Positions 8,225-31,075 of a DNA stretch of 64,000 nucleotides are shown piece by piece. Below the pieces are notes generated by a model that saw only the letters and a program-made list of their open reading frames with translations, was not told the DNA's origin and ran no database searches. The stretch's first letter is position 1, and each line of letters starts with the position of its first letter. The position numbers were made by a program, and so were the translations under genes. The stretch covers positions 6,832-70,831 of the forward strand of contig NZ_CAMFHX010000005.1 in NCBI RefSeq assembly GCF_945952365.1. Reading direction: 5' to 3'. Source of the stretch: an uncultured Cetobacterium sp. Lineage in GTDB: Bacteria; Fusobacteriota; Fusobacteriia; Fusobacteriales; Fusobacteriaceae.

Positions 8225-8629
8225 ATGGCAAAAAGATGGAGCGAAAAGATTAAAGATCTGGAAAATGCTATTTCAAGATTAGATGAAGCTATTAAAGATA
8301 GTCAAAAATTTGAGTTATCTACGTTAAAAGATGGAGCCATACAAAGATTTGAATTTACATTAGAGTTATCTTGGAAAATTTTAAAAACACACTTAGCAAA
8401 TGAAGGTATAGATTGTATTAATACTCCAAAAAGTGTTATCAGACAAGCATATAAAGCTGAAATTATTAAAAATGGAGAAGTTTGGTTAGAGATGGTTGAC
8501 GATAGAAATTTAACATCTCATATTTACAGTCAATCAATGGCTGATGAGATTTATTTAAGAATCACAAAAAAGTATTTCAAAGAGTTAGATTCTTTGCTTT
8601 CTTATTTAAAGGAGATGAGTTTTAATTGA
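8225..8629 (+). CDS. HEPN-domain protein, HI0074-like nucleotidyltransferase substrate-binding family (TA toxin component)
   Basis: 134 aa, all-helical. 4-nt ATGA overlap with the downstream MNT gene, as in HI0073/HI0074-type modules. Confidence 0.65.
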   Translation: MAKRWSEKIKDLENAISRLDEAIKDSQKFELSTLKDGAIQRFEFTLELSWKILKTHLANEGIDCINTPKSVIRQAYKAEIIKNGEVWLEMVDDRNLTSHIYSQSMADEIYLRITKKYFKELDSLLSYLKEMSFN

Positions 8630-8922
8630 ACTTAGGACTAAAAGAAAGAGAGATTGATGAAATAAAAATCTTGCATTATCTCTTTCCTCAAATAAACCAG
8701 ATTATAATTTTTGGCTCTAGAGCAAGAGGTGACTATAATCGAACTTCAGATATAGATATAGCAATAACAGGACAAATAGATGAAATCATATATAAAATAA
8801 GAGATTACTTTGAAGAAAGTAATCTCTTATATACTGTAGATGTCGTTAACTATAACTCAATAACAGATATGGAATTTAAAAAAAATATAGATACCGAAGG
8901 TATCATTCTTAACTGTTATTAA
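8626..8922 (+). CDS. Minimal nucleotidyltransferase (MNT), HI0073-like (TA antitoxin component)
   Basis: GSRARGDYNRTSDIDIAI = GS...[DE]xD nucleotidyltransferase motif; 98 aa. Confidence 0.75.
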   Translation: MNLGLKEREIDEIKILHYLFPQINQIIIFGSRARGDYNRTSDIDIAITGQIDEIIYKIRDYFEESNLLYTVDVVNYNSITDMEFKKNIDTEGIILNCY

Positions 8923-9672
8923 TTAATATTGGTCACTAGCTCAGCTAGTAATCCTTTAAGAAAACGATATCTTGGAAAAATAACTGGCAGAGCTTTAAGA
9001 CTATATACTTTTCTCATCACTAAATCTGACATGGTGATTCGCTTTTAAATTTTCAAAATATTTTATACCTTGACCTTTCGATAAAAGTAAATAGAAAAGG
9101 AGATTACCATATCCAATGATATCGCAATCTCCTACTATTCTAAGGCTAACTTATCTGATTCTTTTCCAGTTCTCTTATTTTTTTTATATAATCTAAAATT
9201 CATCCATTTCATCTACTGAAATTTCATAAACTCTTCAATATCGTACGTAAACTGTATTATATTTCTTTTTGCTTTAGACATATATAACACTTCCTAATAT
9301 CTCTTCTTTTACTTTTTCTTTGTAGTCTTTTACATCTGGATTTTTAAACTTATAATCAAAGACACTTTTTTCAACTAAATCTATCAGTACATAGTATACC
9401 ATATTTAAATTAGAATTTTACTTTACAAATCTACTATAATGATCTAAACACTAAATACTTTTAAAAAAATAATTTTTAAACTCTTCTCTTTTTTATACAA
9501 TATCAGATTTTGTAAAATTAAAGTTGACCTATCATTTAACATATGAGAGTACTTTTATTACTTTTTTAATTAATTATAACACAAAATTAAAAAAAACTGC
9601 CAACATTTATTGTCGACAGCTAGAAATAGAATATAAGTAGATTTTCTTTCAATATAATTTTTTATTTATTTT

Positions 9673-12662
9673 TTAAATCTTCTCAAAAAAATTCTCAAAA
9701 CTGTGAGCTACTTTAAAATCTATTCCAGTATCAATAGCTTTGAAGTGCTCTTTTCCACATTTTATCTTTAGGTTTTCTGTTTCTCTTCTATCCTCTTCAA
9801 ATAGAGAACCTTTAGTTTCAACAACGAAATATAGTTTCTCTTCAGCTCTATCTAAATTAGGTCTTACTAAAACAGCCCAGTCAGGATTATAGTTTCCTAG
9901 AGGTGTTGCTATTTTAAACCAAGCTGGAAGCTTAGCATATACAACAACATTTTTATTTCTCTCTAAATCTTGAGCAAAACTACCTTCTATATCTGAATCT
10001 ATAATAGCGTGAGAATATGGTGACTTTGAACTTTCAATCATATTTCCATTTTTATTCATCTCTGTTTTTAAGTACCCAAATAAATCCTCTGTTTCGAATA
10101 ACTCTTGGCAATAGTACTCCTCTTCACCTAGCTTTTCATACTTAATTCCATCAACTATAAATGCTCTCATAGTTCTTTTTATAACTTCTGTAACCTGCTC
10201 TAAATAAAGTTGTGGATCCTTTTTAAAACTGTATAAAGTTGATGTTCCTGTAAGAATCTCTACTATACTTTTTCTTGTTAAGTTAGTTTCATTTTGTAGA
10301 TAGCTTACAATATCTGGCAGCTTATATCTATTATAAATCTTCATTTCCTCATGCTCAGATACTCCTAACCCATCCTCTTCTATTCCGCCTTGAGTTATTT
10401 GTAATCTCTTTTTTTCGAATAAAAACTTTTCAGATGGTATATATACTGTATTATCAATATTCTCTATACATTTTTTTATTAACTCTTCTTTATTAAAATT
10501 AACTCTGTAAGTAGTTTTATATTTCACCTTTTCCCAAAGTTCTTTAAACTCCTCACTCAATAAAACACCCTTATTAAGAGCAATCTTCTTTTTGTCATCA
10601 GCATTCTTGATAACTAATTTTCCAGCAGTAGATTTTAACTTTTTAATAATAGCAAGTTCTAAAGGTTTGAACTCCTCTGGTAAAACTACTTTATTATCTC
10701 TTAAATCTATTTTTAGTTTATCCTCTGCAATACCTTTAGAGTTTATATAGTTTTGAGTTAACAGATAACTATATATCTCTTCTGATTTTTCATGTCCTAA
10801 ATAAACTTCTTTTCCATACTTTATCTCTGTCACTATATTTGAGAATATATGACTTTCAATAACACCAAATTTGATATTCTCCTCTTTTTCCATCTCTTTT
10901 TGTAGACTATCAACAAATTGTTCATAAGACTCATTTGCCATAACTGTTAAAGTATTCACTTCAAATCCACGAACTCTTTCTCCGTGTTGGTTAACGGCAA
11001 TTCTAAGACCTCTTCCAATCTCTTGTCTTTTCTTTATTTCAGATGTAGTTTCATTCAAAGTACAAATTTGGAATACATTTGGATTATCCCATCCCTCTTT
11101 AAGAGCAGAGTGAGAGAAGATAAATGATAGTGGTTCATCAAAGCTTAATAGCCTTTCTTTATCTCTCATTATTTTGTTAAATGTATCGTTGTCTGCATTA
11201 GTATTTCCCTTTGTATCTTTTTCTTCAAAGTATTCTTTACCACTCTTACTTTTCTTTTTATCCATTGAAAAATAACCATCGTGAACAACAGCAGGTCTTT
11301 CATGCAGAGGAACAGATAATGTACCTAAATCGTGGTACTCAGGATGCTGGATAAGATTAAGATATTCCTCTTCAAACATAATAGCATACTTACCTTTTTT
11401 AGGTTCACCAGTTTCAGTATCATAGATTCTATAGTTTGATACTTTATCAATAAAGAATAGAGATAAAACTTTTATCCCTTGATACTTCAACCTTTTTTGT
11501 TTGTCTAGATGCTCTTTTATAGTTTTTCTAATCTGTAATCTTTTTATAGTATCTGGATTTTCTCCACCGTTTAGTTGTCCTAGAGTAAGTTTAACCTTTC
11601 CTAGATCTACAAAAGATTTAGCAGGGTCCTCTTCATTAAATGTTATTTCATTTACCATATAGCCATCATAGATATCTCTTTTAGTTTTTTCACTTAGAAT
11701 ATCACCATGTTTTATTGAAACCTCTTTTCTAGTTACTTTAGCTCCACTTTTAACATCTAACTCTAACTTTGCACTGATTCCAGTTTTAGTAGCTTTTATA
11801 TCTGTAACTCTTATATATTCTGTATTAGAATTACTACTTACACCTACAGTTGCAACTTCAATCTGTTTAACAAGTTGCTTTTCATAAGCATCCACAGAAT
11901 CTAATTTGAACACAGGATTATATTTTTCTTTATGAGTAGCTGAATATCTTAAAGTACAAAGCGGATTTAAATCTTTTATAGCTTCTTTTGCTTTATCACT
12001 TTCCATGTTTTGAGGTTCATCTATTATTACTACTGGATTACACTGTTGGATATAATCTATTGGTCTATATCTCTTTCTTGCTTTATAACGTTGCTGTCTT
12101 TATTAAAAGAATCTATATTGATAACCATAATTTGAATAGTATCATTAACAGCAAAGTTTCTTATCATATCTATCTTTTTAGAATCATATATGAAATAATC
12201 ATAAGGTACATTATCATACAATCCTTTAAAGTGATCTTTAGTAATCTCTAAAGTTTTGTAAACTCCCTCTTTGATAGCTATTGATGGAACAACTATTATA
12301 AATTTTGTAAAATTATATTGTTTGTTTAGTTCCATTATAGTTCTTAAATAAACATACGTTTTTCCTGTACCTGTTTCCATCTCTACTGAGAAGTTGTAAT
12401 CATCTTTTTTTAGTTTCTTAGTTTGTGGTAATCCGTTTTTAACTTGAATAGAGTTTAAATTTTTTAAAATCTCTTCAGGAAATAGCATCAAGCCATTTCC
12501 TATACCAAGTTCATTTTCAACTGTTCCTAAAACCATTTGAGCTCCTGTTGATTTTTCCACAGTAAACATTGTTTTGTTGCTCTCTTGACCAGAGAATATA
12601 TCTGTAATAGATCCGATTGCATCTAATTGATAACTTAAATCATCTTCAAATTTTATTTTCAA
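9673..12662 (-). pseudogene. res: Type III restriction endonuclease Res subunit, split by a frameshift near 12057-12090 (N-terminal 201-aa ORF 12057..12662 plus C-terminal ORF that is open to 12093)
   Basis: N-terminal ORF carries helicase motif I (TGTGKTYV). Upstream of the annotated Met, the downstream frame reads ...RPIDYIQQCNPVVIIDEPQNMESDK with motif II (DEPQ). The two halves are in frames offset by one nucleotide. Confidence 0.7.
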
Positions 12663-12664
12663 TA

Positions 12665-13663
12665 TTATTCCTCCTCCATAATTAATTTTTTTATATCCTC
12701 TTTTGAAGGAAGAATTGTTTCATATCTACTTGCAAAGATTTGCTCGTTGTTTTCTGGCAGTGTTATCTCTACCAATGTATCATTTTTTTCACGACATATT
12801 ATTATTCCAATAGTTTTATTTTCTTCTGGTAATTTAATAAATCTATCATAGTAGTTAACATACATTTGCATTTGACCTAAATCTTGGTGAGTTACTTCTC
12901 CTATTTTCAAATCAATAAGAACAAAGCATCTCAATAATCTATTATAAAAAACTAAATCTACTCTAAAATGTTTTTCATCAAAAGTAAATCTAACTTGTCT
13001 TCCTACAAAAGTGAATCCTTTTCCTAGTTCTAATAAAAACATCTCTAGCTTGTTAATTATTTCTGATTCTAAATCATGCTCTGAATACTGGTGCTTCTCT
13101 GGAAGCCCTAAAAATTCTAGTACATATGGATCTTTTATTACGTCTATTGGTTTTTCTATTATTTGACCTTTTAACGATAACTCTTTTACAGATTCTTTAT
13201 TTCTACTTAAAACTAATCTTTCATAAAGAGCTGAATCTAATTGTCTTCTAAGTTCTCTTAAACTCCAATTACTGTTAAAAGCTTCAATTTCATAAAACTG
13301 TCTTTCCTCTATATTAGATATTCTCATAAGAATAAGATAATGAGACCAAGATAGATTGAATTCGTCAGACAGTGTCTGACGAATCTTATAAACATCATAA
13401 AAGGTTTTCATCTGCTTTAAATTTGTTTCAGAAAATCCCTTTCCAAAATCCTTTGTTAATCTTATAGAGAGATTTTTTAAAAGTTCTTTACCATAAGTAC
13501 CTCGATATTCACCTTTTTGCTCCTCTTCTAAAATTAGCCTTCCTATTTCAAAATAGGTTTTTACCATGGTTATATTTACTGTTTTCAATACCTTTTCTCT
13601 AGAATTTTTTAAAATATTTAAAATATTTTCATAAAAAATTTCGGTTTTATTTTGCATCTCCAT
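12665..13663 (-). CDS. DUF1016/YhcG-like PD-(D/E)xK nuclease-fold protein inserted between mod and res
   Basis: C-terminal FRVDLVFYN...FVLIDLKIGE resembles the YhcG (DUF1016) nuclease core. 2-bp gaps to both neighbours. Confidence 0.6.
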   Translation of the reverse strand: MEMQNKTEIFYENILNILKNSREKVLKTVNITMVKTYFEIGRLILEEEQKGEYRGTYGKELLKNLSIRLTKDFGKGFSETNLKQMKTFYDVYKIRQTLSDEFNLSWSHYLILMRISNIEERQFYEIEAFNSNWSLRELRRQLDSALYERLVLSRNKESVKELSLKGQIIEKPIDVIKDPYVLEFLGLPEKHQYSEHDLESEIINKLEMFLLELGKGFTFVGRQVRFTFDEKHFRVDLVFYNRLLRCFVLIDLKIGEVTHQDLGQMQMYVNYYDRFIKLPEENKTIGIIICREKNDTLVEITLPENNEQIFASRYETILPSKEDIKKLIMEEE

Positions 13664-13665: not shown

Positions 13666-15549
13666 CTATATGCTCCTAATCTCTTTTATTCCAGCTTGTT
13701 TTAGCTTTTGAATAGCGTTTGTTTTATCAACATCATTACTAAATGAGCTATCTCTTAGTACTACTGTAGTTTTATAATCTTCATCTATTTCTAATAGCAT
13801 CTTATACTCTTCACATATAGAATCTATGACATCTAAAGTTATCTCTTTATCCAGGTTAACTAAAAGAGTTCCCCCTCCTATCGAATAGAAATCTTTATTC
13901 TCTACGATTGAAACATTAAGATCTAATCCATATTTTAAAAGAATTTCATAAAGAACATCTAGTGAAGTTCTATCAGCTTTTATATTATCTACTGAATCAA
14001 ATAAAGTTTGCTTTAAATCCTCTGTTTCTGAATCCCACTCTTTAATATTAGAAGTGTCTAGCTTAAATACTTTAAATCCAACGTCTAATTTTTCTCTATT
14101 TTCTAAAGGTAAACTTTCATCAGATTTAATTTTTTCTCCAGCTCTTCTGATTCTTTCTTTTCCTATTTCACAGATGTTTTTGTATCCTGCTTTTGCTGCT
14201 TCTGAATTTTCAGGTGTAGGCTCAGGTAGTTGCACCATTATATATTTTCTATTTCCCCCATCCTCTGCATTTAACTGCATAGTAGCATGAGCCGTTGTTG
14301 CTGAGCCTGAGAAGAAATCTAAGATAATATCTCTACTTTTTGAACTCAAAATTAACATTCTTTTTAATAAATCTATTGGTTTTGGATAATCAAAAAATGC
14401 ATTCCCATCAAAAAGTTTTTTCAACTCTTGTGCTGCTTGTTGATTATGCCCTACTTCATTATAAAACCATAGTGAATTAGGAACAATTCCTGAACTGACT
14501 TCTGATAAAAAAGTTTTTAACCTTGGTGGATTTTCACCACTTGTTCCAAACCAAATTCTGTTTTCAGATACCAATTTATTAAAGTTTTCTTTATTCGTTC
14601 CCCAATATCTACCATTTGGAGGATAAACTTCTTTTCCCGAAGGCGTTGTTATCTTATATTTTAACTTTTCTGTTCCAGATGCTGTTGAAAATACAACTGA
14701 TCTCCATGGTCCCCTAGAATCATTATCAATATTTTTATAATCTTTATTGTCTTCTTCCGTTCTTTCTAAACGATACAATTCAAACCCATCTTTACTATCT
14801 TTTGTTTTCTTTTTAAGCTTTGAATATACTAAAATTGTTTCATGCATAATTGAAAAGTAAGTTGCATCATTTTGTCTCGCAAATTTCTTTTGCCAAGCTA
14901 TATCGACTATGAAATTTTCTTCTCCAAATATTTCATCACATATTTTTTTTAAATTTGTAACTTCATTATCATCTATCGATATAAATATTACTCCATCATC
15001 TGTTAGTAGATTTCTTGCTAGCTTTAATCTTGGATATATCATATTAAGCCAATCAGAGTGGTATCTTCCACTGCTGTCTGAATTTGTACTTAGCTTTTGT
15101 CCCTCTTCTCCAGTTTGCCCTGTTATTTCTAAATAATTCTTTAAACTGTCTTTAAAGTTATCAGGGTATACAAAATCTTTTCCAGTATTATACGGAGGAT
15201 CTATATATATCATTTTAACTTTGTTATGATATGATTTTTGAAGTAGTTTTAACACTTCTAGATTATCACCTTCTATATATAAATTATCTGTGTTATCCCA
15301 ATTTTTAGAGTCTTCTTTTGAAGGTAAAAGTGTTCCAGTACTCGTTTCTTGTGCTATTCTTCTTGCATTAGATTTCCCATGCCAATTGAAAGAGTATCTC
15401 TCGTTTTCTGTATCAATATGTTCCCCTAATACAACTTTTAAAGCATTAAAATCAATCTTATTTTCTGAAAATATTTCAGGAAATATTTGTTTTAATTTCT
15501 CTATATTATCTTGAACTATATTCATGCTTGTTCCATTTAGTTTTTCCAT
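13666..15549 (-). CDS. mod: Type III R-M Mod subunit (N6-adenine DNA methyltransferase, beta class)
   Basis: Motif IV IYIDPPYNTG precedes motif I FFSGSATTAHA. N-terminus KLKQIFPEIFSENKIDFNALK...ERYSFNWHGK is typical of Type III Mod. Confidence 0.85.
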   Translation of the reverse strand: MEKLNGTSMNIVQDNIEKLKQIFPEIFSENKIDFNALKVVLGEHIDTENERYSFNWHGKSNARRIAQETSTGTLLPSKEDSKNWDNTDNLYIEGDNLEVLKLLQKSYHNKVKMIYIDPPYNTGKDFVYPDNFKDSLKNYLEITGQTGEEGQKLSTNSDSSGRYHSDWLNMIYPRLKLARNLLTDDGVIFISIDDNEVTNLKKICDEIFGEENFIVDIAWQKKFARQNDATYFSIMHETILVYSKLKKKTKDSKDGFELYRLERTEEDNKDYKNIDNDSRGPWRSVVFSTASGTEKLKYKITTPSGKEVYPPNGRYWGTNKENFNKLVSENRIWFGTSGENPPRLKTFLSEVSSGIVPNSLWFYNEVGHNQQAAQELKKLFDGNAFFDYPKPIDLLKRMLILSSKSRDIILDFFSGSATTAHATMQLNAEDGGNRKYIMVQLPEPTPENSEAAKAGYKNICEIGKERIRRAGEKIKSDESLPLENREKLDVGFKVFKLDTSNIKEWDSETEDLKQTLFDSVDNIKADRTSLDVLYEILLKYGLDLNVSIVENKDFYSIGGGTLLVNLDKEITLDVIDSICEEYKMLLEIDEDYKTTVVLRDSSFSNDVDKTNAIQKLKQAGIKEIRSI

Positions 15550-23268: not shown

Positions 23269-23339
23269 TTTCTCCCCTAATAAAATTTTTAATTTTACTT
23301 AATTATAACACTTTTTGATATTTCTTTTCAAATTTTTAA

Positions 23340-23623: not shown

Positions 23624-26600
23624 CTAAGCCTCCTTCATTTTTATTCTCCAAGCTTTTCTATTTCCTGTAGCTTTTGCTCCTCTTTTATCAAAAGTATATC
23701 CATAGTTTTCAGTCTGTAAAAACATCTCTACTTTTCCTTCTATTTCAGGAGTATAGATAATCCACAGCAATCCAGAACTCTCATTATTATCGATATATTC
23801 TATCTGGTGTTCATTTAAAAAAGTATATATGTTCTTTTTTTCTATTTTTTTCATCTCTTTTTCAAACGATAAATTTAATTGTAACTCCTTGCTATTATTT
23901 AAAGTTTCTATAATATTTTTTTGAATTCTTTCAACTTTTTCTGTTTCTTCTAATCCTAGGTTTACTTCTTTAATATCTAAAACATTCTCTTCTTTCACAT
24001 CTATAATTTCAGGATTTTTATAATTCTCTCTCCATTCTTCAAGAAGTTCTAAAGATCTATTTTTTATTTTATTTGTAATCTCCATCTCACTTTCTGTTTT
24101 TACAGCTCTAATATCCTCTGGATAAATCTCTCTTTTCTCCAACTCTTTTATCACATTTTCCATTGTTAAATCTTTATTTCTAAAGTATTTACTTCCTCTT
24201 ATTCTAATAAACTCCCAGCCACATCTCTCTAGTACTTCTTGACGCTCCATATCATTTCGAATTTGTTCTTCACTGCTATGCCATCTATCTCCATCACATT
24301 CGATTGCTACTCTTTTATTTCCATAAGAAATAACCATATCAATTCTATAGGCACCTACCTGCCATTGTTGTTCAATATTATAATTTCTAGCTGAAAGATA
24401 CTTTGCAACCTCTTCTTCAAAAATAGAGTCTGATTTTTTTTCAATATTCTCTCCTTGCATAAAATAATTTGGATTTTCTGCAAATTCTAAAAGTTCTCTT
24501 CTTATATCATCATTTTTTAAATCATTTAATTTATCCAGAGAGTGTACTATCCACATCTGATTTTTTGCTCTACTTGTCGCTACATTATATCTTTTCTTTA
24601 CTGAACCCTCTGCCCCATCACCTGTTTTTCTTAAAGGTCCATCCTCGTTTAGATTACTATCAACCATACTCAAAAATATAACATCTCTTTCATCTCCTTG
24701 AAAATGACTTGCATCTCCACAAAGAATATTATGTTTTTCTATTTTAGAGCTCCCTACTTTTTCTACCAGCAATTTTTGAATTACATCTACTTGCTCTTTT
24801 CCTAACAATGATATTACTCCAAATGATGAATTTTCATATATTTCTTCTTCTAAACAAGCACAAATCAAACTTACAATCGCTTCAGCTTCAACTATGTTAG
24901 TTTTACCATCTACTCCTCTTTCTCCTAAGACCCTATGATTTATAACAGCTGGTTTTAATTTAGAGCTATTAGCTTCTCTTAAAGGCTTTATTTTGTAGTC
25001 ATATGATGTTTTATTGCTATATGAAATAATTTCTGGAACACATCTAAAATGTTCTCTTAGCATTAAAGGTTGATATGTTGTTGAAGCAATTGAATATAAA
25101 GAGCTTTTAGTATCATATAAATCATAATTACTGATTCGTCCCTTCAAGTATTTTTCTCTCAATATATTTTCTTTTTCTATTTTTTGCCCTATTCCTAGAG
25201 GACTAACTTGCTTATCATCTCCAACAATTATTACTTTTTTAGCCATATATAATAATACCAATGAAGAAATATCCGATTGACTAGCTTCATCTATTATTAC
25301 TATATCGAATTTGTTTTTAGCAGGATTTAAAGTATCAATAACTTTACCCATAGGCATTATCCAAACTGGCACAGCTTTTTGACAACTTGATATTTTTTCT
25401 TTTGCTTGAGCTCGATACATTTCAACATTTTTTCCTGTTCCTTTACCCATTTTTTCAATTGTTTGCTTCCATCCTCTTAAAGCTTGACTTATTAATAAAT
25501 TATCTTTTCTCTCTACAAAACATAAAACATGATACCATGATTTTTTTTCAACTAATTTCAATGTCAATCTTTTCAAATTTAAAGACCTTTGCTTTAGTTG
25601 TTCTTGCAATTCTTCATAAGGCTCTTTTTCTAATTCCTCCATTTTTTTCGAAAGTTGACTCCATTTCCAAACTTCGTAAATATCTTCAATCTCTTCTTCG
25701 AAAGTTCCATTTTTTAAACTCATACAAAAATCCCTTGCTACAACTTCTATTTTGTTTAATAATTCGTGCTTTTTATTATATAGCACTCTTTTTTCTGACG
25801 TATTTTCTAATATCTGTAACCACCTAGCATACTCTTCATAATTCTCATTATAAATAGCCAACCTAATATTTGTTTCAATCATGGATGATTGCTTTGAATT
25901 TTTCAAAATTAAACTATAATATGTCGCATATTCTTTCTTTACTTTTAATAAGTTCATTCCAGCTTGAATTACCTTCAAGGTCTTTTCTAATTTATGACCT
26001 AGACTACAAATCATTTTGACTTGTTCAAACATAAATTCTGTTTTTTTATTATCTAAAAGATAGTCTATATTTAAACCTGCATCTTCTATATTTTTTAAAA
26101 AAATTTGCTTTTGATTTTTATTCCATTCTAGGAAATAGTTTAATTTATTTATGTAATTATAGGCATATTCTAAAAATTCATCCCCTTCTTTCTTAGAAAT
26201 TTCATTTATTTTTATCAATATATCCCATTTTTTCTTTAAATTTTGCTTTTCTTTTTCTATCTCTAAAAAGTTTAAAACTAATTCACAGTCTTCATTTGTT
26301 ACTATTTCTTTTCCATTATAATAAATTTTTCCCTTCAAATTATCTTTTGCTTTTTTTAAATTATTTTTAAACAAAAAACCCGGATTTTTTAAGGCTTCTT
26401 TAAATTTTTTCAAAAGTTCTATTCCTTCTGAAATGTCTATAAAATTATGCTCTATTATCTTATCAAAATATATTTTCCTACTTTTATCAACCAGATTATA
26501 AACTTCCTCAATATTTTTTATCAAATCTTTATAAAGATCCTTTTTTGAATTCTCATTACATCCTACTAATATAATTTCAAGTTGCCATTCTTCTATTTTT

Positions 26601-28471
26601 CTTAATTCCGAAGGAAGTAATTCATCTTTATAATTATATCTTTCATACTTTTCTAAATCTGCAATTTTTTCTCCTTCAATATACAAGATTTCCTCTTGAA
26701 AATTAAATCTTTTTTCTTCGATAATTTTTATAAATAAATTTTCTATATCACTTTTTTTATCTAATAGTTGCTTAAATTCATCTTTATTTTTAAAAACTTC
26801 TAACTCTGTTAAACCATTTTTTATTTCAGTTTCTTCTTCTTTTGTTATTTTGTTTTTATAATTATATAAAAATTTGAACTCTTCATTTGAGATTGGGCAT
26901 GCTTTTCCTACTGCTACTTCTCCTGTTATTTTATTTAATTCCTTTTCATTTTTTCTTAAGTAGTCTCCAATCTTTTTTACAGAAAAACCCTCGCCATTAT
27001 AAACAATTGATTGATTTTCTTTATACTTTATTGAATACATTTTGTTTTTTATCTCTTTTAATTCATTATACTCGTCCTTTCTTTTTTCTTCTAATATCTT
27101 AATTTCTCTTTTTAATTCCTGCGAATCTAAACGTCCTATATTTTCTGATATCCCATCTACCGAACGTTTCATATCTCCATTATCATCATCTAATACAGAT
27201 ATGCATAAATTTTGAATTTCTTCAGGTATTTTATCTTTTAAAACCTTTAGTGCTTTTTTAGTCTGACTTGTCACTAAAACATTTTTTCCTTGTGCTAAAA
27301 AATGACCTAGTAAATTTGCAATCGTATGAGTTTTTCCTGTTCCTGGTGGACCTTGAACTATAACTGCATTATTTTGATTTATTCTTTGAGCTATTTCTAT
27401 TTGCTCTTTATTCGACTCCTTTACAAATAAGATATCCTCAATAGGAGTTACTGATTTAGTATCTTTCTCTTGAAAAGTTTTTTCTGATTTTACAATTCCT
27501 ACTAATTCAGAAAGTTGAGTTGGTATATTTTCAAACTCTTGTACATCTTTAATTATTTCATCTATAGTCTTTAATATTCCATTCTCCCTTTTTCTTATAA
27601 AGAAAAACGGGTTACTTTCTATAATTAAACTATTTTTTGTCAGCGATTGCTCGTTTTCTACATCTTTTATATATATTCCATCTTTACTCAATTTATGAAT
27701 AAATTCTCTAAAAAAGCCACCTATTTCTACCTCTTTACAAATAGAGATATCTTTAATCTTTTTTTCTAATTCTAATACCCCTGTTAAATCAACCTCTTCT
27801 TCATTTAAAAAATCTGTATAAAGCATTATTGGATTTTTATCTTCTAAATCGGAAATTAATATTTTATTATTTTCTGCTTCAAAATTAATTCTTACTTTTT
27901 TTAATAAAATTGGATAGCAAATTCCACTTAATTCTTTCCTTAATATTCCATTTCCTAATAGTAATTCTAAATTTTCACTATCTCTATTCAGTTCTAAATA
28001 TCTAATATAAAAATTATCAAAAACATCTCGAACTTTTTGAATTATCCCTTGTTCATGAGTCCATTTTTTTCTTTTTTCTATCTCTAGTTCCAGTTTTAAC
28101 AATATCTCTTCTGGAATTTTAAAAATTTCACTAACAACTTCTTTATCTTCTACTCCAACATTTCTTTCAATCTCAATTATCTTTTCTGATTTTATAGTTA
28201 TCTTCGATCTATAATCTTTCCAATCTCCAACTATCCACTCTACTAATTCATTTTCTATAAATAATGGTTTCAATAAATGAGGTTTAGTTATTTCTAAAAA
28301 AATTCCATCTTCGTCAAAATTAACTTTAATGCTTTTATGCTCTGGTAAATTCTGTAAAAAATAACTCCATTTTTCTTTTTCTATATTTTTTAAAATATTT
28401 CTTGAATTTTTACTTATCTCTAAAAGGTAACTATATAATGATATTATTTTATCCTGCTCTTCTACTTTCAT
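23624..28471 (-). CDS. Large SF1 (Upf1/DNA2-like) helicase fused to a DUF559/Vsr-like endonuclease domain, with about 370-aa N-terminal and about 200-aa C-terminal regions of unknown function (1615 aa)
   Basis: Motif I VIVQGPPGTGKTHT; motif II DIVIIDEASQ; motif III VIIVGDDKQVSPLG; motif VI YNVATSRAKNQMWIVHS. DUF559-like RIDMVISYGNKRVAIECDGDRWHSSEEQIRNDMERQEVLERCGWEFIRIRG. Confidence 0.75.
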   Translation of the reverse strand: MKVEEQDKIISLYSYLLEISKNSRNILKNIEKEKWSYFLQNLPEHKSIKVNFDEDGIFLEITKPHLLKPLFIENELVEWIVGDWKDYRSKITIKSEKIIEIERNVGVEDKEVVSEIFKIPEEILLKLELEIEKRKKWTHEQGIIQKVRDVFDNFYIRYLELNRDSENLELLLGNGILRKELSGICYPILLKKVRINFEAENNKILISDLEDKNPIMLYTDFLNEEEVDLTGVLELEKKIKDISICKEVEIGGFFREFIHKLSKDGIYIKDVENEQSLTKNSLIIESNPFFFIRKRENGILKTIDEIIKDVQEFENIPTQLSELVGIVKSEKTFQEKDTKSVTPIEDILFVKESNKEQIEIAQRINQNNAVIVQGPPGTGKTHTIANLLGHFLAQGKNVLVTSQTKKALKVLKDKIPEEIQNLCISVLDDDNGDMKRSVDGISENIGRLDSQELKREIKILEEKRKDEYNELKEIKNKMYSIKYKENQSIVYNGEGFSVKKIGDYLRKNEKELNKITGEVAVGKACPISNEEFKFLYNYKNKITKEEETEIKNGLTELEVFKNKDEFKQLLDKKSDIENLFIKIIEEKRFNFQEEILYIEGEKIADLEKYERYNYKDELLPSELRKIEEWQLEIILVGCNENSKKDLYKDLIKNIEEVYNLVDKSRKIYFDKIIEHNFIDISEGIELLKKFKEALKNPGFLFKNNLKKAKDNLKGKIYYNGKEIVTNEDCELVLNFLEIEKEKQNLKKKWDILIKINEISKKEGDEFLEYAYNYINKLNYFLEWNKNQKQIFLKNIEDAGLNIDYLLDNKKTEFMFEQVKMICSLGHKLEKTLKVIQAGMNLLKVKKEYATYYSLILKNSKQSSMIETNIRLAIYNENYEEYARWLQILENTSEKRVLYNKKHELLNKIEVVARDFCMSLKNGTFEEEIEDIYEVWKWSQLSKKMEELEKEPYEELQEQLKQRSLNLKRLTLKLVEKKSWYHVLCFVERKDNLLISQALRGWKQTIEKMGKGTGKNVEMYRAQAKEKISSCQKAVPVWIMPMGKVIDTLNPAKNKFDIVIIDEASQSDISSLVLLYMAKKVIIVGDDKQVSPLGIGQKIEKENILREKYLKGRISNYDLYDTKSSLYSIASTTYQPLMLREHFRCVPEIISYSNKTSYDYKIKPLREANSSKLKPAVINHRVLGERGVDGKTNIVEAEAIVSLICACLEEEIYENSSFGVISLLGKEQVDVIQKLLVEKVGSSKIEKHNILCGDASHFQGDERDVIFLSMVDSNLNEDGPLRKTGDGAEGSVKKRYNVATSRAKNQMWIVHSLDKLNDLKNDDIRRELLEFAENPNYFMQGENIEKKSDSIFEEEVAKYLSARNYNIEQQWQVGAYRIDMVISYGNKRVAIECDGDRWHSSEEQIRNDMERQEVLERCGWEFIRIRGSKYFRNKDLTMENVIKELEKREIYPEDIRAVKTESEMEITNKIKNRSLELLEEWRENYKNPEIIDVKEENVLDIKEVNLGLEETEKVERIQKNIIETLNNSKELQLNLSFEKEMKKIEKKNIYTFLNEHQIEYIDNNESSGLLWIIYTPEIEGKVEMFLQTENYGYTFDKRGAKATGNRKAWRIKMKEA

Positions 28472-28928
28472 TCAAGACCCCTTTTTATATAAAATATTTT
28501 TTATTTAATTATAGCACTTTTTTATCTTTTTTTTCAATTCTTCTATTCCTATAAACAAACTAAAAAAATAACTTAACAAATTAATTTTCTCTCTAAAACC
28601 ATCTATAATCAAGACTTTATAGAAATTTTTCAAACACTTTTTTTGACCCACACCACTCTTTCTAAAGCGATATTTTTTCACCCATATCTAGAATAAGCCT
28701 CTTTTTTTAGCAATCCCTTAAAATAAAAATAAGAGCGTCATTTTTGCAAACTTTTGTTCTAATTTTAGTAAATTTCACTTTTTTATCTAAAAAACACTTA
28801 TAAAAAAGTATTTTGATCAAAATAGTTCATATATGAAGTCTTTTTTCTAACTCTAAACAATCTTTAATTTAATCAAAAAACCGCAGGCTTTTACCCACGG
28901 TTTTTAACAAATCTATTTAATTTTTTCT

Positions 28929-29474
28929 CTATCTTTTAACTTTTAAATCCCCTGATTTCATATCAATTATAAAATCTATATCTGGATAATCATTGATAAA
29001 TCTATTCAAAACACTAAATAAAACTTTCACTCTATTTGTCACTTTATTCTCTTCAATTTTGTTATTTAAAGATAGCTCATACATAGCTCTATACTCTTTC
29101 ACACGTTCATTTGAAACATCATTTAAAGCTAAATTTCCAGCATTTCTAAAACGATATAGATCTGTAACTAAATCCGTTCCATTCCACTTTTCTAAATCTT
29201 TAATTGTAACTCCATTTCTTTTTAAAATCTCTTCTGCACCCTTTTCATTTCCTACTGCTAAGAGGTTAAACATATCTTTTCCTGACATCGGTACAATATT
29301 CGTTTTAATATCCTCTGGCCAATCTTTTGGTAAGAATCTAAGCCTTACTAACTCTTGAATATGCCAATTTGTAAACTCTTTGTAATTTTTAGACTTTAAG
29401 ATATCCTTATTCCAAATATTTTTTGCTCCTGATTTTTCTAGTTGAATATACTCTTTTTCATAGTGCTCAAACAA
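28929..29474 (-). CDS. Hypothetical protein (181 aa), probable TTG start
   Basis: ORF begins right after an in-frame stop at 29484-29486, next to the IS right end. No recognisable motifs. Confidence 0.35.
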   Translation of the reverse strand: MFEHYEKEYIQLEKSGAKNIWNKDILKSKNYKEFTNWHIQELVRLRFLPKDWPEDIKTNIVPMSGKDMFNLLAVGNEKGAEEILKRNGVTIKDLEKWNGTDLVTDLYRFRNAGNLALNDVSNERVKEYRAMYELSLNNKIEENKVTNRVKVLFSVLNRFINDYPDIDFIIDMKSGDLKVKR

Positions 29475-29486
29475 CTCAGTGAACTA

Positions 29487-29508
29487 CTCCCACTTATAGA
29501 AGTGGGAG
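29487..29508. repeat. IS right-end subterminal hairpin, within the probable omega-RNA scaffold region downstream of the tnpB stop
   Basis: Perfect 9-bp stem CTCCCACTT-ataga-AGTGGGAG. More palindromes at 29521-29540 and 29558-29572. Confidence 0.5.
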
Positions 29509-29582
29509 CTTCTTGGGAAGTACTTAACTAGTGTTAAGTATATTGACCAAGCTCTATGGGTAGTTCCTACCCTGTATATATT

Positions 29583-30680
29583 TTAATAAGCCAGTAGTGT
29601 TCTACCAACTTCACGAATATTTATACTTGCATTTAGGTCTCTATCCATACTATGACCACATTCACAGTTATATACTCTATCTCCTAAAGAAAGCGAGTCT
29701 TTTATGTTTCCACAAGAAGAACAAGTTTTTGACGATGGAAACCACTTATCTATTTTTATTACTTGTTTACCTAAAAACATAGCCTTGTACTGAAGCATGA
29801 CTGTGAATAATCCCCAAGAGTTATCAGCGACAGATTTACCAAAGTTTAATGCCTGACTCATACCTTTCATGTGCAGGTCCTCAATGATAATCGCATTATA
29901 CTTTGTAACTAATTCTCTTGATAACTTGTGGAGAAAGTCTTTTCTACTGTTTTTAATAGATTGATGGATTTTAGCAACTTTCAATTTAGCTTTATACCAA
30001 TTACTTGAAAATTTAACTTTTCTTGACAGCTCTCTTCCAGCTTTAGCTAATTTAGTTTCTAATTTTCTAAAAAATCTAGGATAATCAGCTCTTTGGTTAT
30101 CAGAGCTAACGAATAATTCAGACATAGAAAAATCAAGTCCAACGATATTGTTATCGCTAGGTACTTCTTTTATATCTCTTTGAAATTCAGTAAGAATAGA
30201 AACGTAAAAAGCCCCATTAGGTTCTTGGCTAATGGTAGCAGATTTAATTTTATAATTTTGAGGTATATTTCTATGAAGTTTAGCTTTAACTAATCCCAAT
30301 TTAGGAAGCTTTAAGAAAGTACTCTCTATTCTAATAGAGTTATTAACACTATTTGTAGAATAAGATTTTCTAGCTGTTTTTTTAGATTTAAACTTAGGAA
30401 AAGCTGTTCTTTTCTGAAAAAAATTAGTGAATGCAGTTTTTACATTCATTTGAGCATTGGCTAAAGCTAGACTATCAATTTCTTTCAAAAATGGAAATTC
30501 AGATTTAAGAGAAGCAGGAGTAATAATTTTATTTTTACCCTCCAATTCATAAATCTCTTTAGCTTTACCCAAAATCTTATTATATACAAACCTAACACAA
30601 CCAAAAGTTTGTAAAATCAAATTCGATTGAACTTCATTTGGGTATATTCTAAATCTAAAAGCTAAATTATATGTCTTCAT
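29583..30680 (-). CDS. tnpB: TnpB (OrfB) RNA-guided nuclease / IS605-family transposase accessory protein
   Basis: N-terminal RFRIYPNEVQSNLILQTFGCVRFVYNKIL OrfB_IS605 motif. RuvC-like core. C-terminal zinc finger CSSCGN...CECGHSMDRDLNASINI. Confidence 0.85.
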   Translation of the reverse strand: MKTYNLAFRFRIYPNEVQSNLILQTFGCVRFVYNKILGKAKEIYELEGKNKIITPASLKSEFPFLKEIDSLALANAQMNVKTAFTNFFQKRTAFPKFKSKKTARKSYSTNSVNNSIRIESTFLKLPKLGLVKAKLHRNIPQNYKIKSATISQEPNGAFYVSILTEFQRDIKEVPSDNNIVGLDFSMSELFVSSDNQRADYPRFFRKLETKLAKAGRELSRKVKFSSNWYKAKLKVAKIHQSIKNSRKDFLHKLSRELVTKYNAIIIEDLHMKGMSQALNFGKSVADNSWGLFTVMLQYKAMFLGKQVIKIDKWFPSSKTCSSCGNIKDSLSLGDRVYNCECGHSMDRDLNASINIREVGRTLLAY

Positions 30681-30765
30681 AGTTTTACACCTCCATTTTT
30701 ATAGATTATCCCAATATTATAAAGGACTTTACACTAAAAATCAACAAAAAAAGAAAGGCAATTCA

Positions 30766-30790
30766 TCTCACCACCTAAAGAGGTGGGAGA
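30766..30790. repeat. IS left-end subterminal hairpin
   Basis: TCTCACCACCT-aaag-AGGTGGGAGA, imperfect (one bulge). Shares a GTGGGAG core with the right-end hairpin. Confidence 0.45.
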
Positions 30791-30957
30791 ATTCTTGCCC
30801 AAACACTGTTAAAATCCCCATACACATCATGAAAATGTACATCCGATACAAATGCAACTTTATGTTGCTCCTGAGCATTTACCATTGCCGCTCCCATCAC
30901 TGCTAATAATCCAATTAAACTTTTCTTTACACTAAACATTTTTCTCCCTTTTCCCAT
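30775..30957 (-). pseudogene. Truncated ORF: signal peptide plus start of a mature domain (KVAFVSDVHFHD, metallophosphoesterase-like) that runs into the IS left-end hairpin and stops
   Basis: 60-aa ORF with a Lys-rich N-region and hydrophobic core. Its last codons (ILPPL*) are encoded by the IS end hairpin. Confidence 0.35.
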
Positions 30958-31075
30958 TTATTGTTATATTTAATTAGATTATACACCAACGATGTTAAAA
31001 TTATCTTTATTCCATGCAAAAAACAAGTTAATTTATATAAATATTTTTTGTATTAAAAATATATTTGTTTTCTAT

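Follow-up and report, generated by a model that had tools for sequence, protein, structure and literature searches.

Genes and features of the locus

Between a gene for a BFD-like protein and the nfeD/SPFH genes, the 64,000-nucleotide window analyzed here, which comes from an uncultured Cetobacterium sp., carries the genes and features collected in Table 1. Profile searches agreed with the gene identities (HEPN, MNT, split Type III res, SIR2_2 protein, AAA_15/21 ATPase, SNF2, PC4-like protein, helicase-nuclease and TnpB) that an earlier note had proposed from the sequence.

Table 1. Predicted genes and other features, in window coordinates
Feature	Coordinates	Strand	Matches and remarks
HEPN-type toxin (NTase_sub_bind, HI0074-like)	8225..8629	+	Pfam PF08780, E = 8e-38
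MNT antitoxin, minimal nucleotidyltransferase	8626..8922	+	GSxxxG...SDIDI; Pfam Polbeta / NTP_transf_2
Decayed remnant of second MNT gene	8923..9258	-	backbone common to insert-less relatives
Type III res, C-terminal 777 codons, pseudogene fragment	9673..12006	-	helicase C-terminal part and PD-(D/E)XK RE_endonuc; PADLOC REase_III, Pfam RE_endonuc
Type III res, N-terminal 201 codons	12057..12662	-	PADLOC REase_III profile positions 1-195
YhcG/DUF1016 PD-(D/E)XK nuclease, mod-to-res cargo	12665..13663	-	Pfam YhcG_C, DUF1016_N; PADLOC candidate PDC-S02, 456 bits
Type III Mod adenine methyltransferase, intact	13666..15549	-	PADLOC MTase_III, 765 bits, full length; Pfam N6_N4_Mtase
905-aa SIR2_2 protein, DUF4391-to-mod cargo	15553..18270	-	Pfam SIR2_2, E = 1e-26
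Leader: sigma-70 promoter and branched hairpin	18296..18410	-	promoter TTGACA-17-TATAAT (perfect), 18410-18382
DUF4391 protein, module core	18419..19099	-	Pfam PF14335, E = 1e-39
296-aa ABC/OLD-type ATPase (AAA_15/AAA_21, PtuA-like), SNF2-to-DUF4391 cargo	19149..20039	-	PADLOC PtuA, 360 bits; Pfam AAA_15/21
1071-aa SNF2-like SF2 ATPase, N-terminal PLD-like domain, module core	20053..23268	-	Pfam SNF2-rel_dom, Helicase_C
Promoter-like site of SNF2 unit	23302..23331	-	TTGAAA-18-TATAAT, extended -10 TG; 11/12 matches
Bidirectional hairpin, intrinsic terminator of helicase-PC4 unit	23349..23372	.	minus-strand T run
80-aa PC4/YdbC-family ssDNA-binding protein	23380..23622	-	Pfam PC4, E = 3e-13
1615-aa Upf1-like SF1 helicase (AAA_11/AAA_12) with C-terminal Vsr-type MTES_1575/DUF559 nuclease	23624..28471	-	
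Promoter-like site of helicase-PC4 unit	28508..28537	-	TTGAAA-18-TATAAT with TG
Metallophosphoesterase C-terminal remnant, residues 437-617	28929..29474	-	87% identity to L003 5905-7758
TnpB-only IS200/IS605-type element	29479..30808	-	tnpB 29583-30680; Pfam HTH_OrfB_IS605, OrfB_IS605, Cas12f1-like_TNB
Metallophosphoesterase N-terminal remnant, residues 1-43	30775..30957	-	signal peptide; 86% identity

The translation of the HEPN gene, which overlaps the MNT gene by 4 nt, contains the R-x4-H motif as RNLTSH. Mod carries the DPPY and FxGxG motifs, and it diverges from the Mod of the related locus L013 in the central target-recognition region, where positions 14331-14811 of the window are not alignable. 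In the SIR2_2 protein, encoded by the gene with the lowest GC content in the island (20.6%), the N-terminal ~235 aa form a NADase-type domain with GAGVS, TNYD and KMHGD motifs and the C-terminal region comprises ~650 aa; PADLOC matches to ThsA and Dsr2 were partial, and the NCBIfam Dsr2 model scored 82.6 bits (cut-off, 1400). For DUF4391, neither PADLOC nor NCBIfam contains a model, and its AF2 model (pLDDT 86.9) had no significant match in the PDB.

The Type III system combines an intact mod with a res that is indeed broken, as had been noticed before. The larger res fragment covers positions 222-985 of the 989 in the REase_III profile (755 bits), and alignment with the intact 1000-aa res of L013 indicates that the frame was lost by a 13-bp deletion (GATCAAGCAAATG, between window positions 12071 and 12072). 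Gene calls show the identical split in five assemblies, all of which come from one study and may mark a single clone.

Three minus-strand transcription units can be delineated, in agreement with the earlier reading, each headed by a promoter. The terminator placed at about 23340-23372 is present at 23372-23349 and, together with the promoters, sets apart two units, here denoted A and B. A hairpin with a U8 tract also exists at 18295-18356, where a second terminator had been proposed, but it is located downstream, not upstream, of a perfect sigma-70 promoter. This leader hairpin (18356-18296) is branched, with a GNRA tetraloop, and has a minimum free energy of -24.6 kcal/mol (z = -3.7).

Boundaries and variability among relatives

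Blastn comparisons, for which L003, L016, L004, L009 and L013 served to define the island and its boundaries, and the gene tables of the relatives showed that the block is missing from close relatives within Cetobacterium, the flanks of which are 99.4% identical and enclose metabolic genes instead. At least five alternative contents of the BFD-like-to-nfeD interval occur within Cetobacterium, and the flanks diverge by 0.4-0.6%, with up to 2.8% beside the junction. These differences in gene content, with the defense block absent from several relatives, bear out the suggestion of a variable accessory and defense region, and the stretch is a real, strain-variable anti-phage defense island, of an ordinary kind and with an under-described module architecture, in which functions are predicted from the sequences.

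The insert itself spans approximately 9259-28580 (~19.3 kb) and consists of two independent units; the limits of 8225-30960 given previously have to be drawn in at both ends. On the left, the toxin-antitoxin pair was correctly recognized but is not cargo of the island: HEPN/MNT is an older, separate variable unit outside the insert because it is present in the insert-less L003, L005 and L019 and is reduced in L016 to an 80-bp scar matching window positions 8774-8853. This pair is encoded on the plus strand and is thus an exception to the claim that all cargo genes lie on the minus strand. In the adjacent 8923-9258 segment, stop codons occur throughout all three minus-strand frames; positions 9075-9258 are 90% identical to L003 2489-2673, just past which a 56-aa NTP_transf_2 fragment (2712-2882) is called, and similar fragments of 69 aa (L005) and 48 aa (L019) are found at the same place.

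On the right, 28.6-31.07 kb is decayed resident DNA and a TnpB element. As judged from blastn homology breakpoints, the element, with hairpins close to both ends, replaces codons 44-436 of the metallophosphoesterase gene, so that 28929-30957 represents a resident gene for a 617-aa secreted protein gutted by the element, and not cargo. The ORFs at both ends of the segment, being pieces of a resident metallophosphoesterase, contradict the view that the block contains only defense and mobility functions. The resident amidohydrolase, permease, HxlR and FMN oxidoreductase genes would have been deleted here.

The impression that the block is AT-rich holds as far as GC content is concerned: it is 26.7% in the insert vs 32.3% in the flanks (Mann-Whitney p = 1e-4 for per-gene values), and the 19.6-kb segment with the lowest GC within the whole 64 kb begins at 9001. 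However, GC3 does not differ between insert and flanks (0.189 vs 0.197, p = 0.58); the AT excess resides in the first two codon positions and hence in amino acid composition. Because GC3 matches the flanks, the AT-richness is not a signature of foreign DNA, and composition is uninformative on the origin of the block.

The tRNA-Leu(CAA) gene at 32657-32743 does lie 1.7 kb beyond the block and, together with the transposon-type tnpB at the right edge, might point to a classical integrative mobile element inserted site-specifically at or near this tRNA. We consider such an element extremely improbable. No integrase or recombinase gene is found among the window ORFs, no direct repeats flanking the insert were detected, and in every relative, whether it carries the insert or not, nfeD/SPFH separate the tRNA gene from the variable region, which deprives the tRNA of relevance; furthermore, the TnpB element lies inside a resident gene, without tnpA. 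The internal backbone remnants show 77-90% identity, against 99.4% in the flanks, which fits allelic exchange by homologous recombination. The defense block could also be ancestral, having been lost from L003, L016 and the like, with the metabolic genes as later arrivals, given that presence and absence alone give no polarity, that the locus has multiple states, and that L016 has clearly lost HEPN/MNT. This scenario is very improbable too: the window retains broken metabolic remnants (the two ends of the metallophosphoesterase gene and amidohydrolase 3'-flanking DNA), and therefore the metabolic genes were apparently there first and were then deleted; moreover, relatives lack any remnant of the defense genes, and L021 has the module in a different context. 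The polarity would more probably be insertion here than loss elsewhere. Overall, we regard as probable that this is a hypervariable Cetobacterium locus, the contents of which would be exchanged by homologous recombination, and which here holds a module with cargo slots (unit A) and unit B, followed by wreckage of resident genes.

A probable four-gene module with cargo slots

Unit A (9671-23300), which accounts for most of the island, appears to be a single widespread, unnamed four-gene Type III-like restriction-modification operon, with the SNF2-like ATPase, DUF4391, Mod and Res genes in colinear order. This gene order recurs in Cetobacterium, Fusobacterium and Leptotrichia (L013 and L020-L026), and the full-length loci from Fusobacteriota (L021-L024 and L026) contain all four core genes in colinear arrangement. 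SNF2, DUF4391 and methyltransferase genes, often overlapping or abutting, are colinear in all 8 plasmid loci inspected, from three phyla (Lactococcus, Enterococcus, Bacillus cereus, Acinetobacter, Desulforapulum, Methylotuvimicrobium, Aeromonas and Acetobacter), with a downstream Res-type helicase annotated in 6. The SNF2 orthologs in other phyla are 46-56% identical to the window protein, and the DUF4391 family comprises 2369 clusters at 50% identity. Neither PADLOC nor NCBIfam defines such a four-gene system, and no published definition joining these genes was found in an incomplete literature search, so that an earlier description is possible.

All three junctions among the core genes hold variable cargo, in this case the PtuA-like ATPase, the SIR2 NADase and YhcG, and elsewhere AbiD, SIR2-HerA, a GajB-like UvrD helicase, HEC-01A/B, YhcG or unknown genes. 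Between SNF2 and DUF4391, the ATPase is missing in L020 and L021, and L026 has an unknown protein of 219 aa instead; between DUF4391 and mod, a 363-aa unknown protein (L013) or AbiD (L021) takes the place of SIR2_2; and between mod and res, YhcG is absent in L023 and L026 and internally deleted in L013. The promoter and hairpin leader are conserved 5' of all three different genes in the DUF4391-to-mod slot (window, L013 and L021), and the cargo boundary comes immediately after the U tract.

In such a module, Mod would mark host DNA, Res (an SF2 motor with a PD-(D/E)XK nuclease) would cut DNA lacking the mark, and the SNF2-like motor and DUF4391 might form an accessory motor/adaptor pair loading or regulating Mod/Res; alternatively, SNF2 and DUF4391 may constitute a two-gene system of their own that simply travels alongside Type III restriction-modification. 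The junctions would serve as cargo slots, with the PtuA-like ATPase, the putative NAD-depleting SIR2 effector and the YhcG nuclease most likely providing back-up, abortive-infection layers. Because the 13-bp deletion shifts the frame of res, this lineage has probably lost the module's capacity for classical restriction, while the cargo, Mod and the accessory pair are intact.

In the earlier note, the Type III system, the SIR2 protein and a PLD-SNF2/ATPase operon were parsed as separate systems that accumulated side by side with the helicase-nuclease. This parse accommodates the matches of SIR2, the PtuA-like ATPase and YhcG to stand-alone PADLOC families or candidates, the promoter and terminator-like hairpin that divide SNF2-ATPase-DUF4391 from SIR2-mod-YhcG-res, and the lack of a uniting definition. 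However, it appears unlikely in view of the colinearity of the core genes across phyla, the gain and loss of extra genes at fixed junctions, and the recurrence of 9671-23300 as a single piece in L021, at 85-88% DNA identity; these observations argue for one conserved module with three embedded cargo genes. A further possibility is that a functional PLD domain makes the SNF2 protein a motor nuclease comparable to SauUSI or MANTIS MtsD, in which case the module would keep a working nuclease despite the broken res. The PLD-like N-terminus and SF2 motor of this protein match PADLOC 'HKD+Snf2' (C3a139, 487 bits) over the full length, and the protein is similar both to HKD-helicase effectors found in Type-2 BREX-related systems (PMC12839542) and to MtsD, in which His122 is catalytic (bioRxiv 10.64898/2026.09.23.753747). 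Nevertheless, the HxK motif is absent from all 13 orthologs, with His, Lys and Asp unconserved at the HxK(x)4D position and only a GSxxFT-like segment left; PLDc_2 scores 25.5 bits, under the Pfam cut-off of 27; and a PDB sequence search retrieved no PLD protein. An active nuclease is thus quite improbable, and the PLD-like domain is predicted to be catalytically dead.

A helicase-nuclease with a PC4-like partner

Unit B (23349-28580) appears to be a second, conserved two-gene system related to Hhe; the 1615-aa protein is also related to PDC-S37 and ProA. The pairing with a PC4-like partner noticed earlier proved to be conserved, PC4 genes adjoining those for AAA_11/AAA_12/MTES_1575 helicases in 8 lineages, with two different gene orders. 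The two proteins are probably translationally linked, and the PC4/YdbC protein would presumably hold the strand unwound by the helicase. The helicase homolog of F. vincentii has no PC4 neighbor, and more distant PC4/YdbC genes are located in conjugation operons.

A putative four-component restriction-modification module

The minus-strand genes at 9671-23300 (hereinafter, Unit A) had been read in an earlier note as separate systems, namely, Type III restriction-modification (R-M), a SIR2 protein and a PLD-SNF2/ATPase operon. The colinearity of these genes in other genomes, the movement of the cargo between them and the recurrence of the entire block in another locus, L021, instead indicate that Unit A is most likely a single four-gene module. 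The core of the module consists of an SNF2-like ATPase, a DUF4391 protein, Mod and Res, whereas the remaining genes are cargo located in the junctions. Nearly all individual gene identities proposed in that note agree with the Pfam, PADLOC and NCBIfam scans; it is the family-by-family scoring that splits the four-gene operon into three seemingly unrelated “systems”.

Features of the defense island and its surroundings (window positions)
Feature	Position	Strand	Characteristics
HEPN	8225-8629	+	Rx4H motif RNLTSH
MNT	8626-8922	+	GSx10DxD motif GSRARGDYNRTSDIDI; 4-nt overlap with HEPN
res, two fragments	9673-12006 and 12057-12662	-	Type III res
YhcG/DUF1016	12665-13663	-	
mod	13666-15549	-	Type III mod
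SIR2_2 protein	15553-18270	-	905 aa
Leader hairpin	18356-18296	-	branched, GNRA tetraloop and U8; MFE -24.6 kcal/mol, z = -3.7
Promoter of SIR2	18410-18382	-	perfect TTGACA-17-TATAAT sigma-70
DUF4391	18419-19099	-	
AAA_15/21 ATPase	19149-20039	-	
SNF2 protein	20053-23268	-	1071 aa, weak PLD-like N-terminus
Promoter of SNF2	23331-23302	-	near-consensus
Terminator of helicase-PC4 unit	23372-23349	-	hairpin, then T run
PC4-like protein	23380-23622	-	80 aa
SF1 helicase with MTES_1575/DUF559 nuclease	23624-28471	-	1615 aa
Promoter of helicase	28537-28508	-	near-consensus
tnpB	29583-30680	-	PF12323, PF01385, PF07282
tRNA-Leu(CAA)	32657-32743		

A profile search of genome contigs with the DUF4391 alignment retrieved 7 further loci, 6 of these labelled Cetobacterium, Fusobacterium or Leptotrichia and thus from Fusobacteriota, and one from a MAG labelled Sarcina sp.; all 7 show the order SNF2-like, DUF4391, mod, res where the contig is long enough. 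A tblastn search of plasmids with DUF4391 yielded 51 records, of which we inspected 8, from Lactococcus, Enterococcus, Bacillus cereus, Acinetobacter, Desulforapulum, Methylotuvimicrobium, Aeromonas and Acetobacter, with DUF4391 proteins only 22-31% identical to that in the window. All 8 encode, in this order, a “helicase-related / SNF2-related protein”, DUF4391 and a “site-specific DNA-methyltransferase”, with the genes overlapping or abutting; 6 include an annotated downstream DEAD/DEAH (Res-type) protein, and the other two end after the methyltransferase, which is followed by an IS1380 transposase in the Acetobacter plasmid. Overall, the methyltransferase gene is preceded by SNF2 and then DUF4391 in 8 of the 8 plasmid loci and in every Fusobacteriota locus examined, and the module is represented in Fusobacteriota, Bacillota, Pseudomonadota and Thermodesulfobacteriota. 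Between phyla, the SNF2 orthologues share 46-56% identity, and the DUF4391 family, at an E-value of 1e-3 or better, encompasses 2369 clusters at 50% identity. In L021, where the flank matches the window at 55.2 kb, positions 9671-23300 recur at 85-88% DNA identity, which indicates that the module moves as a unit. Locus L013 carries a variant in which res is intact (1000 aa), the YhcG gene has an internal deletion and mod differs in its central region; DUF4391, the ATPase and the start of SNF2 are the same as in the window, the locus ending 161 nt into the SNF2 gene.

Mod is intact in the window (PF01555, E = 7e-42; PADLOC MTase_III, 765 bits over the full length) and contains the sequence “IDPPYNTG”. 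Res retains both domains, but its ORF is split, compared to L013, by a 13-bp deletion (GATCAAGCAAATG, with GAT microhomology) between 12071 and 12072. The res gene is intact in L013 and L021, and the same split gene call is present in five assemblies, all from one study. Phase variation was considered as the cause of the break and rejected, given that the deletion lies between GAT microhomologies and involves no simple-repeat tract. With res broken, the module of this strain has no obvious restriction nuclease besides the cargo YhcG. In a comparison of the window mod with its counterpart in L013 (15422-17284), the ends are 87-95% identical, and the center (window 14331-14811), presumably, the target-recognition domain, is unalignable, implying different methylation specificities in near-identical islands.

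The PLD-like N-terminal domain of the SNF2 protein scores 25.5 bits against a Pfam threshold of 27 (PLDc_2), and an alignment of 13 orthologues reveals no conserved His, Lys or Asp at HxK(x)4D, with a GSxxFT-like segment alone surviving. Given this subthreshold score and the missing HKD residues, we read the protein as a putative motor without nuclease activity. The confident structural model of DUF4391 (pLDDT 86.9) consists of an alpha/beta N-terminal domain followed by long C-terminal helices and has no significant relative in the PDB. We also looked for a Rosetta-stone fusion of SNF2 and DUF4391, but the sole long DUF4391 protein found (library protein P0446, 1419 aa) joins a different helicase: DUF4391 is located at the C-terminus, after RNase_H_2 (RecB-like) and an SF1 AAA_11/AAA_12 helicase. 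Thus, SNF2 is not the only class of helicase with which DUF4391 is paired, which fits the role of a helicase-associated adaptor.

Interchangeable cargo and a probable shared leader

The cargo differs between loci while occupying the same junctions between the core genes, so that these fixed operon slots provide a guilt-by-embedding handle for new defense genes.

Cargo in the junctions between core genes
Locus	SNF2 to DUF4391	DUF4391 to mod	mod to res
Window	PtuA-like ATPase	SIR2	YhcG
L013	same ATPase	363-aa unknown	truncated YhcG
L021	none	AbiD	YhcG
L026	219-aa unknown	none	none
Fusobacterium L022, L024	none	none	SIR2-HerA, YhcG, second mod
Leptotrichia L023	none	none	SIR2-HerA
Aeromonas L033	none	GajB-like UvrD helicase	HEC-01A/B

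Three slot genes, in L013 (17310-18401), L026 (3255-3914) and L020 (4234-4891, 219 aa, truncated where the contig ends), are without a match in Pfam or PADLOC; because they fill slots taken in other loci by SIR2, AbiD or an ATPase, they are, by position, candidate new defense genes. The Aeromonas locus, on the A. media plasmid NZ_CP067418.1 (3774-18651), is a dense defense cluster, with DUF262, NUDIX, ADP-ribosylglycohydrolase and WYL genes ahead of the module.

The three minus-strand transcription units that had been read off the sequence are borne out by near-consensus promoters in front of the helicase, SNF2 and SIR2 genes. Of the two terminators proposed to delimit them, the one downstream of PC4 does end the helicase-PC4 unit, but the hairpin at 18.3 kb lies 3' of the perfect promoter and 5' of the SIR2 ribosome-binding site, that is, in an apparent leader. 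The same promoter, hairpin and U tract also precede the 363-aa gene in L013 (~18390-18530) and AbiD in L021 (6760-6885); the tetraloop is GAAA except in L021, where it is GTGA, and the homology between the variants stops just past the U tract. This putative leader, common to interchangeable cargo, could function as an attenuator or as a small RNA. It matches no Rfam family, and of two pattern scans of metagenome contigs, the first returned nothing and the second returned 15 chance matches, in soil contigs of high GC content that lack the remainder of the motif.

The SIR2 protein contains a SIR2_2 domain (E = 1e-26) with the sequences GAGVS, TNYD and KMHGD, and thus resembles DSR2 and ThsA in the GAGxS, N and H motifs, and DSR1 and DSR2 in its large size as one polypeptide, much of which is a long non-catalytic part. 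However, the matches to DSR2 and ThsA are limited to residues 2-276 (Dsr2, 82.6 bits against 1400); the C-terminal region of ~650 aa has no match, and neither ThsB, nor a SLOG domain, nor a nearby TIR gene was detected. Its location within an R-M operon parallels that of YhcG in Type I R-M operons with embedded genes, such as that of a C. estertheticum plasmid. The ATPase scores 104 against the NCBIfam PtuA cut-off of 500 and, unlike in Septu, is not accompanied by a PtuB HNH nuclease, its neighbors being SNF2 and DUF4391.

Relationship to known defense systems

Each of three known types of systems accounts for a part of the module. Type III R-M of the EcoP15I/EcoP1I type is matched by the full-length Mod with its DPPY motif and by the architecture of Res, an SF2 ResIII helicase with a C-terminal PD-(D/E)XK RE_endonuc domain, and the intact Res of L013 matches the NCBIfam model of Type III endonucleases from end to end, albeit at 320 bits against a cut-off of 564. 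Type III R-M, however, consists of two genes, mod and res, whereas here SNF2-like ATPase and DUF4391 genes always come before mod and cargo lies between the core genes, in the window, with YhcG separating mod from a frameshifted res. Class 1 DISARM shares the pairing of an adenine methylase with a PLD-like domain, and DrmD models are the best named NCBIfam and PADLOC relatives of the SNF2 protein, with scores of 165 bits against 610 (NF038317) and 119 against 950 (NF038318); but neither DrmA nor DrmB (DUF1998) is encoded among the ORFs of the window block and, to our knowledge, DUF4391 and Res are not DISARM components.

The remaining relative, the Type-2 BREX-related/MANTIS (Gao_RL) systems, comprises an HKD-SF2 helicase effector, a small partner (DUF3780/MtsB), a methyltransferase and a DUF499 ATPase (PMC12839542; bioRxiv 10.64898/2026.09.23.753747). 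The module resembles these in the fusion of an N-terminal PLD fold to an SF2 motor and in the small uncharacterized alpha+beta partner beside the helicase, linked to an N6-adenine methyltransferase. Nevertheless, no ORF of the block encodes a DUF499 ATPase, methylation is assigned to a Type III Mod (PF01555) instead of the methyltransferase type of those systems, the partner is DUF4391 rather than DUF3780, and there is a separate Res; furthermore, the catalytic HKD residues are missing, whereas the MANTIS effector MtsD, of similar architecture, has a catalytic His122 in its PLD domain (bioRxiv 10.64898/2026.09.23.753747). Because a defining feature of each of the three is lacking, namely, two genes with an intact res in the window, DrmA/DrmB, and DUF499 with HKD, respectively, the module fits none of them. 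Literature searches for SNF2/PLD/Type III and HKD/Snf2/Mod/Res combinations returned no description of it; DUF4391 was named only in passing, once apparently as a slip for DUF7941, and PF14335 was absent, whereas PADLOC and NCBIfam have no DUF4391 model. As far as the searchable literature goes, we therefore consider the four-gene module, with its cargo slots, to be a putative new, or at least unnamed, R-M variant.

On a Bacillus cereus plasmid (NZ_AP022858.1, 784-14526), drmA and a DUF1998 gene directly precede SNF2-DUF4391-methyltransferase-Res. This arrangement suggests either that the two are combined in a hybrid or that class 1 DISARM and the module are linked in evolution.

A helicase-nuclease paired with PC4/YdbC

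Upstream of the module, at 23349-28580, the 1615-aa helicase-nuclease and the PC4/YdbC gene, which starts one base past the helicase stop codon, form a conserved two-gene unit. Relatives of the PC4/YdbC protein with 56-87% identity adjoin helicases of the same architecture in 8 lineages, including F. varium, F. perfoetens, F. nucleatum, two metagenome lineages and Acetoanaerobium; in Fusobacteria bacterium ZRK30, the gene order is reversed, and one helicase homologue, from F. vincentii, has no PC4 neighbor. Three PC4/YdbC relatives are located just downstream of Type I hsdR, and distant ones (41-54% identity) are found in conjugation operons of Gram-positive plasmids. Close relatives almost always neighbor the gene of a large ATP-dependent motor nuclease.

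The large protein contains Upf1-like AAA_11 and AAA_12 domains and C-terminal MTES_1575 (E = 9e-32) and DUF559 (Vsr-type) domains, and its N-terminal 330 aa have no match. It shares with Hhe, ProA and PDC-S37 the combination of an SF1 core and a Vsr-type nuclease in one polypeptide, but its NCBIfam scores are far below the equivalog cut-offs (ProA, 216.6 bits against 1500; Hhe, 149.1 against 2000). The match to PDC-S37, a model without a curated cut-off, is 241 bits over residues 330-1522; the “S” in this PADLOC name presumably denotes a single-gene candidate, whereas here the PC4/YdbC gene is a conserved partner. In view of the known biochemistry of YdbC (PMC3575825), the small protein could be an ssDNA-binding cofactor, and its recurrent pairing with giant helicase-nucleases and Type I HsdR points in the same direction. 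The PC4-like literature that we searched links PC4/YdbC neither to restriction nor to a cofactor role for giant helicase-nucleases, and no paper was found for the NCBIfam “ProA” protein.

Two F. nucleatum strains (L064/L065, ~5786-6279) differ at this unit: one lacks the 1619-aa helicase and keeps PC4, next to KilA-N and methyltransferase genes, together with an overlapping 78-aa ORF that, by its position, is probably a helicase stub; in the other, Type III res lies directly upstream of helicase-PC4.

Working model

From the observed composition, boundaries, linkage and lesions, we infer all the roles in the following model. Mod would mark host DNA, and Res would cleave unmarked DNA after translocating on it. 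SNF2 and DUF4391 could serve as an accessory motor and its adaptor, by analogy with DrmD in DISARM and with MANTIS, where methyltransferases are loaded in an ATPase-dependent manner. Abortive-infection back-up would come from the slot cargo, that is, a SIR2 NADase, an ABC-type ATPase and the YhcG nuclease; in this strain, restriction by Res would be lost. Foreign or damaged DNA would also be the target of the helicase-PC4 pair, acting on its own. The two natural alleles, with res intact in L013 and L021 and frameshifted by 13 bp in the window, are well suited for testing the contribution of SNF2 and DUF4391 to methylation and restriction.

A more inclusive reading is conceivable, although we would sooner doubt than endorse it as a whole. 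Under this reading, SNF2-like ATPase/DUF4391/Mod/Res would represent a distinct, widespread, unnamed four-component R-M class in which a nuclease-dead PLD-SNF2 and DUF4391 control a Type III-like Mod/Res, and the fixed junctions would be docking slots for interchangeable abortive-infection genes, which in Cetobacterium would have a promoter and a structured-RNA leader in common. Likewise, restriction-type motor nucleases (Hhe-like helicases and Type I HsdR) would have in PC4/YdbC a cofactor dedicated to binding ssDNA.

The island and its locus

With its clustered PADLOC matches of the defense type (REase_III, MTase_III, PDC-S02, ThsA/Dsr2-like SIR2, PtuA-like ATPase, HKD+Snf2 and PDC-S37/Hhe), the island itself is an ordinary defense island. 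Several Cetobacterium contigs were retrieved by exact-protein look-up with the SPFH and BFD-like proteins, and the junctions were mapped by blastn of the window against them. The alignment to relatives that the earlier note had called for shows that the block varies: it is missing between near-identical flanks (98.6-99.5%) in six loci, L003, L005, L019, L016, L004 and L009, whereas L013 carries a variant defense block. By contrast, metagenome contig ERZ12289984 NODE_29 is 100% identical to the window over 1-18134 and 99.97% over 21562-42440, the two stretches fetched.

L003 (GCA_051651205.1), with flanks 99.4% identical over window 6454-8928 and 31068-42440, keeps HEPN/MNT, which is followed, up to nfeD, by genes for an amidohydrolase, a cytosine/purine permease, a 617-aa metallophosphoesterase, HxlR and an FMN oxidoreductase. 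Pieces of this content persist in the window: by blastn, 9075-9258 matches a stretch beside a decayed second MNT gene (90%), 28850-28920 the 3' flank of the amidohydrolase gene (87%), and 28917-29478 and 30809-31065 the 3' (90%) and 5' (77%) parts of the metallophosphoesterase gene, respectively. At the protein level, a 181-aa ORF corresponds to metallophosphoesterase residues 437-617 (87% identity) and a 60-aa ORF to residues 1-43 (86%). Because these two remnants flank the TnpB element, the element (29479-30808) replaces codons 44-436 of a resident gene. The broken pieces argue that the metabolic genes were probably resident first, and the amidohydrolase, permease, HxlR and oxidoreductase genes appear to have been deleted in the window. 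Given that 28581-28878 is shared with L009 (78%), the foreign insert extends from ~9259 to ~28580. L016 and L004 (GCA_051653205.1) have a different content, with aminotransferase, Mga-type regulator, peptidase and PTS genes and MNT reduced to an 80-bp scar, and L009 has a third, so that the locus is hypervariable, with at least 5 states.

These comparisons also modify two claims of the earlier note: the block is not purely of defense and mobility functions, because it includes the metallophosphoesterase remnants, and not all of its cargo is on the minus strand, given that HEPN and MNT are on the plus strand. The latter two resemble HEPN-MNT toxin-antitoxin systems in both motifs and in the gene overlap, but differ in that HEPN comes first, followed by MNT. 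TnpB has all three domains typical of IS200/IS605 elements (HTH, RuvC-like OrfB and zinc ribbon), and the element is closest to the TnpB-only, non-autonomous members of this family. There is no tnpA ORF; hairpins are discernible by eye near both ends of the element, and it contains no omega-RNA family of Rfam.

As for the mode of acquisition, the tRNA-Leu(CAA), which is present as predicted, was considered as an integration site and rejected: nfeD/SPFH lie between the tRNA and the variable region in all relatives compared, and no direct repeats flanking the insert and no integrase or recombinase ORF in the block were found. Moreover, mismatches climb to 2.8% just right of the junction, and the backbone remnants are 77-90% identical compared to 99.4% for the flanks. 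Together, these features favor homologous recombination, acting through the conserved flanks, over site-specific integration as the likely mode of exchange.

The window has ~30% GC overall, and the block is indeed AT-richer than its surroundings (26.7% GC in the insert against 32.3% in the flanks; per-gene difference, p = 1e-4), the lowest-GC 19.6-kb window in the 64 kb beginning at 9001. In the proposed comparison of windowed GC and codon usage, GC thus differs, but GC3 is equal to that of the flanks (0.189 against 0.197, p = 0.58), so that base composition is not taken as evidence of origin. The A+T excess is confined to codon positions 1 and 2 and therefore reflects Lys/Asn/Ile/Glu-rich proteins rather than a foreign mutational bias.

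To the left of the island, window 7544-8134, encoding a 69-aa membrane ORF and the BFD-like protein, is 100% conserved at the protein level in a second context, in L011 and L018, with ThiS/ThiF upstream and CobB-type SIR2, DUF2141 and YkuD downstream; the “core” left flank itself thus occurs in two arrangements.
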